The notes: generated by a model not told the origin, from the letters alone. DNA of 64,000 nucleotides from Escherichia coli O127:H6 str. E2348/69 (GCF_000026545.1 NC_011601.1); one strand, 5' to 3'; shown: positions 49,297-49,894, counted from the first letter of the stretch. A program made the numbers and translations.

Positions 49297-49894
49297 TATT
49301 TGTCCTTAAATCATAAATAATTAGAATATAAGCCAACTGAAATATTGACACAGAGCTTCTTCAATTTTTTGCAGCGACTTTTAACCAGCCAATGAACATA
49401 TTTTCAGATCCTGAAAAAACAGGTCCCTTGAATCAATATTCTTTGGCGTGCCGAACATATTGATATTTTAATATGACTGACGCAATTTAGATTTTCTAAC
49501 ATTCAAAGTTAGAAATACTTAATTAATAGGCAGGAATAATAATTACTGAAATTTTTCATCTCAGTTATGAAGAATAAGTTCAAAAAAACGGCAAATGCAA
49601 AAACCCAGTGAATAAATTAAAGTCAAAAATAATCACATGGCAATGACTATCTTGTGATATTAATTTCGCAACGATATAATATTAAAACACTATAATTAAT
49701 ATAAAATCAAGACCCAATAATATTTTTCACTTTAGTCATTATTTACCTAAAAATGCTTCCAGAAAAATAATTTATGAATAAAAGTAAATTCTCTTTCAAT
49801 ATGTAAATTTTTACAAATAAAAGCGTCATGCCGTATAAAATAAAGACCATTCGATCACAAGCGGATCATTGTTAGTACAATAAGATTGCATAAA
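49297..49894. promoter_or_regulatory. Strongly AT-rich leader / promoter region of the yfc fimbrial operon
   Basis: About 600 bp with very low GC and many A/T tracts directly upstream of yfcV; compatible with nucleoid-protein (H-NS-type) silencing. Confidence 0.5.

Follow-up and report, generated by a model that had tools for sequence, protein, structure and literature searches.

The DNA considered here is the intergenic spacer between yfcV and sixA on the chromosome of Escherichia coli O127:H6 str. E2348/69, which we analyzed within a window of 64,000 nucleotides (the whole stretch under study). Over 801 bases spanning the finding, the sequence matches the E. coli E2348/69 chromosome NZ_CP059840.2 at 100% identity, and the RefSeq annotation of this strain places the spacer at 49297-49958 (662 bp). 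It is bordered by yfcV, a gene for a fimbrial major subunit named here by its position (48730-49296, minus strand), and by sixA (49959-50444, minus strand), and thereby separates the 3' end of sixA from the start of the yfc chaperone-usher operon. The fimbrial operon is encoded entirely on the minus strand, from yfcV back to a yfcO-like adhesin gene at 42848; 3' of yfcV follow the genes for the usher, the chaperone, three more subunits, and the YfcO-family adhesin.

The original prediction had described about 600 bp of noncoding DNA upstream of a fimbrial operon. RefSeq bears out this description, but the spacer ends at 49958 rather than at 49894, and the 64 bp that had been left out carry the sixA terminator. 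No features are annotated inside the spacer in E2348/69 or K-12, nor under the 30 matches listed of 635. It had also been called the longest noncoding stretch in the window, whereas it is the second longest, exceeded by the alaA-lrhA spacer (181-1099, 919 bp, 38.7% GC), which also includes the window's second-lowest-GC 600 bp. At the right end of the window (~58400-64000), prophage remnants adjoin a tRNA-Arg gene; they comprise an intS integrase, tail-fibre and baseplate genes, and two truncated genes. The features of the spacer, with the evidence on which each is based, are as follows.

49297-49958, minus strand: full yfcV-sixA spacer, 28.9% GC, probably regulates the yfc chaperone-usher fimbrial operon (RefSeq annotation, composition)
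49297-49351, minus strand: proximal region with promoter-like GTGTCA-17-TATTCT (49351->49323) and a Shine-Dalgarno sequence (scan, six-allele comparison)
49378-49400, minus strand: conserved block TATGTTCATTGGCTGGTTAAAAG, consensus TTCAATGGCTGGGTATAA (six-allele alignment)
49433-49485, minus strand: conserved segment that includes a candidate middle promoter, TTGCGT (49485->49480)-17-CAATAT (49462->49457) (six-allele alignment)
49484-49524, no strand: imperfect 41-bp palindrome that includes the inverted repeat at 49493-49515 and overlaps the conserved block TTAGnAAAnnTAAATTG (49499->49481) (repeat scan)
49652-49680, plus strand: best-conserved sigma-70-like promoter, TTGTGA-17-TATAAT, directed away from yfcV, predicted start ~49687 (10/12 consensus match)
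49676-49705, minus strand: weak promoter-like element facing yfcV, TTTATA-18-TATTAT, predicted start ~49669 and 5' UTR of ~373 nt (scan)
49689-49717, minus strand: TTGGGT-17-TATAGT, positional counterpart of the K-12 yfcV promoter (alignments)
49905-49947, minus strand: putative intrinsic terminator of sixA (inverted-repeat scan, RNA fold, six-allele hairpin conservation)
49717-49698, 49689-49670 (central core), 49499-49478, 49472-49457, 49453-49433, 49400-49378, and 49334-49297, minus strand: conserved blocks, higher coordinate first (six-allele alignment)

The GC content is 27.1% over 49297-49894 and 28.9% over 49297-49958, compared with 50.8% for the window. The extreme AT-richness that had been predicted is thus real: the spacer holds the window's lowest-GC 600 bp (the next lowest reaches 35%), and its AT content is far above average over several hundred base pairs, as is characteristic of H-NS-bound promoter islands. 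The phased A/T tracts described alongside it find no support in a comparison with dinucleotide shuffles: the spacer has 38 A-tracts against 39.2 ± 3.4 in the shuffles. Over the whole spacer, no AA/TT periodicity of 10-11.5 bp stands out beyond chance (82% of shuffles equal or exceed the observed power), and even the best 120-bp sub-window is matched or beaten by 54% of shuffles. A simple consensus scan finds 6 promoter-like sites versus 4.6 ± 2.4 in composition-matched shuffles, which is no clear excess by this measure; promoter islands were originally defined with a different predictor, PlatProm. The H-NS nucleation motif TCGATAAATT has only two-mismatch matches in the spacer, whose density, in roughly 5-fold excess, can be accounted for by AT-richness alone. 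As predicted, no open reading frame (ORF) of at least 60 aa is present, the largest having 35 aa.

At the 3' end of sixA lies a GC-rich hairpin followed by a U-run, which we take to be the intrinsic terminator of this gene. The stem, AAGGCCCG / CGGGCCTT (49947->49918), has 8 GC-rich base pairs and a 14-nt loop and is followed by UAUUUUUUU on the sixA strand; the predicted RNA fold amounts to -19 kcal/mol. Although the sequence of the hairpin differs between alleles, its pairing is kept in all six, with compensatory two-sided changes in 4 of 11 pairs, so it is conserved as a structure. With a loop limit of 8 nt, the terminator scan did not pick it up.

The spacer is one end of a segment that appears to be exchanged as a whole. 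Between the smrB stop codon and the sixA stop codon (42779-49958), E2348/69 is 43-82% identical to K-12, compared with 92-99% in the flanks, with sharp transitions at both ends. Five alleles of the complete 7.2-kb yfc island exist, each with sharp boundaries, and such a variable segment between conserved flanks is typical of horizontally exchanged DNA. Its composition is not atypical, however, as the yfc operon has 49.2% GC (window mean 50.8%) and only the spacer is AT-rich. The term "xenogeneic", used in the original prediction, therefore suits the island as a replaceable cassette with sharp borders but not the coding genes with their ordinary GC content, and silencing would consequently be confined to the spacer. 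At the island's other border, the smrB-yfcO spacer (42779-42847) contains a GC-rich palindrome, GCCTGATAAGACGCTTCAGCGTCGCATCAGGC, which resembles a REP element.

In 5,426 complete E. coli genomes, counted at a coverage of at least 80%, the K-12 spacer type occurs in 3,072, the CFT073/AREA504 type in 1,206, the E2348 type in 633, the O157 type in 429, and the E69 type in a single genome. Together these five types, which are mutually barely alignable, account for 5,341 genomes (98%). A sixth allele, related to the O157 type, is found in Escherichia whittamii. The E2348-type spacer is always single-copy and chromosomal, and BLAST finds no link to the other types. The six alleles have 27-32% GC and a length of 563-680 bp, yet share only ~60-70% sequence identity; composition and length are thus conserved better than sequence. 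Within the E2348 type, 8% of the columns are variable in the spacer versus 12% in the yfcV coding sequence. In several strains with a K-12-type spacer, the match is split into two pieces over 1,457 bp and overlies an annotated IS1 transposase; here IS1 has inserted into the AT-rich spacer. A 2.2-kb contig (JAIJJM010000567.1, "MAG: Collinsella sp.") carries a spacer 96% identical to the E2348 type and most likely comes from E. coli, having been binned wrongly.

The gene yfcV (c2884) has been studied in CFT073, and the CFT073-type yfcV allele is a uropathogen marker. This strain carries the AREA504-type allele, with a YfcV 72% identical at the protein level and a spacer 44% identical to E2348/69, which rules out that the E2348 allele is the B2 or CFT073 allele. 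Because the alleles differ, probes or primers designed on either the CFT073 or the E2348/69 allele may miss the other.

To look for elements that are kept in position, the alleles of E2348, K-12, O157, the AREA504/CFT073 type, E. coli E69, and Escherichia whittamii were aligned and scanned with a composition-corrected sigma-70 matrix, and coincident sites were sought in the alignment. Mean column conservation between the two ends of the spacer is 65%. All promoter assignments given here are predictions, and the elements are only presumed to be active.

The most consistently kept element, the plus-strand promoter at 49652-49680, occupies the same alignment column in 6/6 alleles with 8.7-12.0 bits; the counterparts in the other five read TTGGCA-18-TATAAT, TTGAGA-17-TATACT, TTGCCG-18-TAATAT, TTGTGA-17-TATAAT, and TTGTAA-17-TATAAT. 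In the shuffle comparison, its minimum allele score (8.1 bits) and summed score (57.5) lie above the maxima in 300 column shuffles (5.5 and 41.1, respectively), a significance that is somewhat overstated because this null breaks up conserved blocks. Conservation is concentrated in the hexamers (0.78 and 0.94), the 17-18 nt between them being at background (0.64), and 49643-49718 contains zero variable positions among seven E2348-type sequences. Inside the promoter core, at 49674-49721, a unit of ~25 bp is repeated imperfectly in tandem (1.9 copies, 78% matching, TRF score 61); a related direct repeat, TATAAAAT(C/A)AAGACC, is present at 49700 and 49834.

The -10 hexamer of this promoter (TATAAT, 49675-80) overlaps by 5 bp with the minus-strand -10 TATTAT (49681->49676) of the weak element facing yfcV. 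The two hexamers lie on opposite strands with an offset of 1 bp, their positions 2 and 6 being base-paired, as in bidirectional promoters. Warman et al. (bioRxiv 10.1101/2020.01.31.928960) report that promoters with such a -10 geometry have starts 18 bp apart and that H-NS-silenced DNA is enriched in them. The core is located about 380 bp upstream of yfcV, and its outward-facing half is the stronger and better conserved one; the minus-strand half, TTTATA-18-TATTAT, may function as its partner. We regard this conserved outward-facing and probably bidirectional core as the one mildly new element of the locus. A minus-strand start at 2454035 in the same preprint was considered and discarded, as it belongs to the Bacillus subtilis table. 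The Cappable-seq supplements list no coordinates for K-12 transcription starts within the spacer, and no fragment of it was found in the searched parts of the supplement to a promoter-island mutagenesis study (PMC11661796).

Toward yfcV, the picture is one of several weaker candidates. Four yfcV-facing elements (the minus half of the core, TTGGGT, TTGCGT, and GTGTCA) were compared with the column shuffles, and none exceeds their range. The second of these corresponds in position to the TTGAAA-17-TATAGT that K-12 genomic SELEX assigned as the yfcV promoter (PMC3946193), and its TATAGT hexamer is common to the K-12 and E2348 alleles only. In the middle element, TTG and -10 positions 2 and 6 are kept in 6/6 alleles, but it is a candidate only, because its summed score of 30.6 falls within the shuffle range (27.6 ± 4.5). 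It is followed by an unusually GC-rich conserved block, CGGCACGCCAAAGAATA (49453->49437). Closest to the gene, the Shine-Dalgarno sequence AAGGA (49307->49303) stands 6 nt before the yfcV ATG at 49296, and a 27-mer, TTTAAGGACAAATAATGAGTAAGTTTG, comprising the Shine-Dalgarno sequence and the first yfcV codons, is invariant in 6/6 alleles. A second positionally conserved promoter-like element facing outward, TTGTCC-16-TAGAAT (49300-49327, plus strand), is also found here. Its -35 is the reverse complement of the yfcV Shine-Dalgarno region, and its -10 overlaps the yfcV-facing TATTCT with the same mirror geometry as in the core.

The short inverted repeat that had been pointed out does exist (TTTCTAAC-7 nt-GTTAGAAA, 49493-49515), but an 8-bp repeat with a loop of at most 20 nt turns up in 49% of shuffles, which puts it at chance level. 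The palindrome around it (49484-49524) is rarer, with 16/20 symmetric positions, a level reached by 0.6% of shuffles. The other alleles do not keep its centre: the K-12 counterpart has 15/20 with a shifted centre, and three other alleles are near chance level, so that its dyad symmetry is not clearly conserved; we consider it a candidate protein-binding site. Read by eye, the block TTAGTAAATTTAAATT matches the Lrp consensus at 12 of 15 positions, which is weak evidence in DNA this rich in AT.

The closest known system is the K-12 counterpart of the spacer. The K-12 yfcV-sixA spacer is one of 78 promoter islands and was marked as H-NS-bound in two ChIP-chip studies, in MG1655 and W3110 (Panyukov & Ozoline 2013, PMC3661553). 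It also gave a genomic SELEX peak with RpoD holoenzyme, together with an H-NS flag (Shimada et al. 2014, PMC3946193), and one with RpoS holoenzyme (PMC5493296). The Yfc fimbriae themselves are described as core-associated and cryptic but functional (PMC3559732). Expression of yfcV rises on overproduction of TosR in CFT073 and of BolA in K-12, the former result applying to a different allele with a spacer 44% identical to that of E2348/69.

Based on this orthology and on composition, an H-NS-silenced and/or complex fimbrial promoter region, as proposed in the original prediction, is supported; given the binding data and the cryptic-operon literature for K-12, this is the established reading for the locus. 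The ChIP data that had been suggested as a check mark the K-12 counterpart as bound. As the E2348/69 allele is only ~60% identical to it, H-NS occupancy of this allele is inferred from position and composition, its spacer being even richer in AT than that of K-12 (28.9% versus 31.9% GC). We thus put at roughly 80% the probability that the sixA-proximal 50 bp form the sixA terminator and that the other ~600 bp control a cryptic pi-type Yfc operon silenced via H-NS. In this model, DNA of 25-30% GC would provide a binding platform for H-NS, which would coat the many weak promoter-like sites and keep the operon silent. Expression of yfc would then require counter-silencing, either through regulators or through loss of H-NS. 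The weaker promoter-like sites, conserved blocks, and ribosome-binding site are situated nearer to yfcV than the promoter core.

Other explanations have to be weighed against H-NS silencing. Being of the pi type, the Yfc fimbria belongs to the same group as Pap, and the spacer might accordingly be a phase-variation switch, either a fimS-like invertible promoter or a pap-like switch based on Dam methylation and Lrp. Indeed, 195 bp that include the conserved -10 lie between the two arms (49641-58 and 49854-71) of an imperfect 18-nt inverted repeat, and the spacer has three GATC sites where 1.6 are expected. However, ~17 perfect 8-bp inverted-repeat cores are expected by chance in AT-rich DNA of this size (an estimate from base composition), and the right arm of the 18-nt repeat sits in a part of the spacer that is unalignable across the six alleles. 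The spacer is matched at a coverage of at least 80% in 633 of the 635 genomes with this allele, and no inverted copy is seen because each of the matches listed is a single co-linear piece. The RefSeq annotation shows no recombinase, papI, or papB gene nearby. With a repeat at chance level, no recombinase gene, and no second orientation among the matches listed, the locus does not resemble a fimS-like switch. As for a Pap-like one, the GATC sites of pap are about 100 bp apart, whereas here 49853 and 49864 are separated by 11 bp and 49407 is lost in 5/7 E2348-type sequences, leaving no conserved pair at the pap distance. A phase-variation switch at this spacer is therefore very unlikely. A 662-bp stretch without annotation, with several ORFs of 10-35 aa and a conserved outward promoter without a known product, might also hide an unannotated small RNA or small protein, for which the original prediction had left room. 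An Rfam scan at E <= 10 yields just two chance matches (E = 2.5 and 6.7), far below the gathering scores. Among ORFs of at least 10 aa, none has a Shine-Dalgarno sequence except one of 12 aa, whose start codon is absent at the same position in the other alleles. No ORF downstream of the conserved promoter is common to the alleles, indels between them are frequent, and the spacer is unannotated in K-12, E2348/69, and any of the matches listed. The Rfam scan, the scan for short ORFs with ribosome-binding sites, and the allele comparison thus lend this idea no support, and we consider it improbable.

The extreme divergence between spacer alleles could instead point to functionless AT-rich filler, or DNA decayed at the edge of a swapped fimbrial cassette; in line with this, phage records hold no homologues, and the matches in the plasmid collection are two chromosome-sized E. 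coli records (4.9 Mb). Decay is hard to reconcile with a length and AT content preserved in six alleles, with discrete conserved blocks above the 65% background, with a spacer that varies less than the yfcV coding sequence within the E2348 allele, and with the binding of RNA polymerase and H-NS to the K-12 counterpart, so we hold this reading to be quite improbable. An addition to the H-NS model, rather than a replacement for it, is that the outward promoter is functionally the central element of the spacer. It would drive a noncoding transcript away from yfcV that crosses the variable half and approaches, or enters, sixA from its 3' end. This is conceivable but doubtful. Control of yfc or sixA by such a transcript, through transcriptional interference, H-NS remodelling, or reciprocal stimulation of the opposite start, is likewise a tentative proposal. 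The promoter is the only sigma-70-like element that is positionally conserved in 6/6 alleles beyond the column shuffles; its hexamers are kept while the stretch between them is not, it is invariant within the E2348-type allele, and H-NS-silenced DNA is reportedly enriched for bidirectional promoters. On the other hand, conservation within the spacer is lowest in the ~230 nt downstream, which have no conserved ORF, the plus strand of E2348/69 lacks a U-run after the hairpin, inactive -10-like motifs abound in AT-rich DNA, and the shuffle null flatters the promoter somewhat. Along the same lines, and just as tentatively, we suggest that an outward sigma-70 promoter kept through ~40% divergence in six alleles, as half of a symmetric bidirectional core, would, if active, be an integral part of how the silent operon is held off or switched on, through a conserved divergent noncoding transcript or simply through polymerase binding at the core. 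Possible routes are the displacement or organization of H-NS and the reciprocal stimulation of the yfcV-facing start. In all these variants, the silenced control region of the Yfc operon remains the reading that we prefer.

For the field, little changes, as silenced fimbrial promoter regions are a class already described in K-12; the spacer is a well-understood kind of region, here in an uncharacterized allele. The result confirms that a sequence-only reading can spot an H-NS-type silenced fimbrial promoter region. Furthermore, the yfc locus offers a clean natural experiment in which five alleles of one spacer keep their length, their AT content, and a few short blocks, the rest of the sequence having diverged. 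The features preserved across them pinpoint what selection keeps in a silenced promoter region, and a best-preserved promoter that faces away from the operon makes a testable case for bidirectional cores in H-NS-silenced DNA.

Among known systems, the papI-papB region of P fimbriae is long (several hundred base pairs) and has a promoter pointing away from the structural genes. The yfc spacer resembles it in belonging to a pi-type operon and in having a long regulatory region with an outward promoter, but is without papI and papB, without GATC sites ~100 bp apart, and without a conserved GATC. With the bidirectional sigma-70 promoters of Warman et al., the core shares overlapping -10 elements on opposite strands, AT-rich DNA of the H-NS type, and predicted starts 18 bp apart; here, however, the yfcV-facing half has a poor -35, and only the outward half is clearly conserved.

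The list of promoter islands (PMC3661553) includes spacers beside the putative fimbrial operons yad, sfm, ybg, elf, yeh, and yra, as well as around fimB, fimE, and fimA. These upstream regions are likewise AT-rich spacers and H-NS-interacting promoter islands, and the yad and yeh fimbriae are, like yfc, described as cryptic but functional (PMC3559732). The fim region differs in having an invertible switch and recombinase genes, to which nothing at the yfcV-sixA spacer is comparable. The closest relative is the K-12 yfcV/sixA promoter island, although the two spacers show ~60% identity only after forced alignment, with no match detected by BLAST. H-NS and RNA polymerase binding were measured on the K-12 allele only, and the usher gene yfcU is a pseudogene in K-12 while the E2348/69 operon is intact. 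Nonetheless, both spacers occupy the same position between the same genes, are similar in length (680 versus 662 bp) and GC content (31.9 versus 28.9%), and have conserved blocks, a ribosome-binding site, and a central core of overlapping -10 elements.
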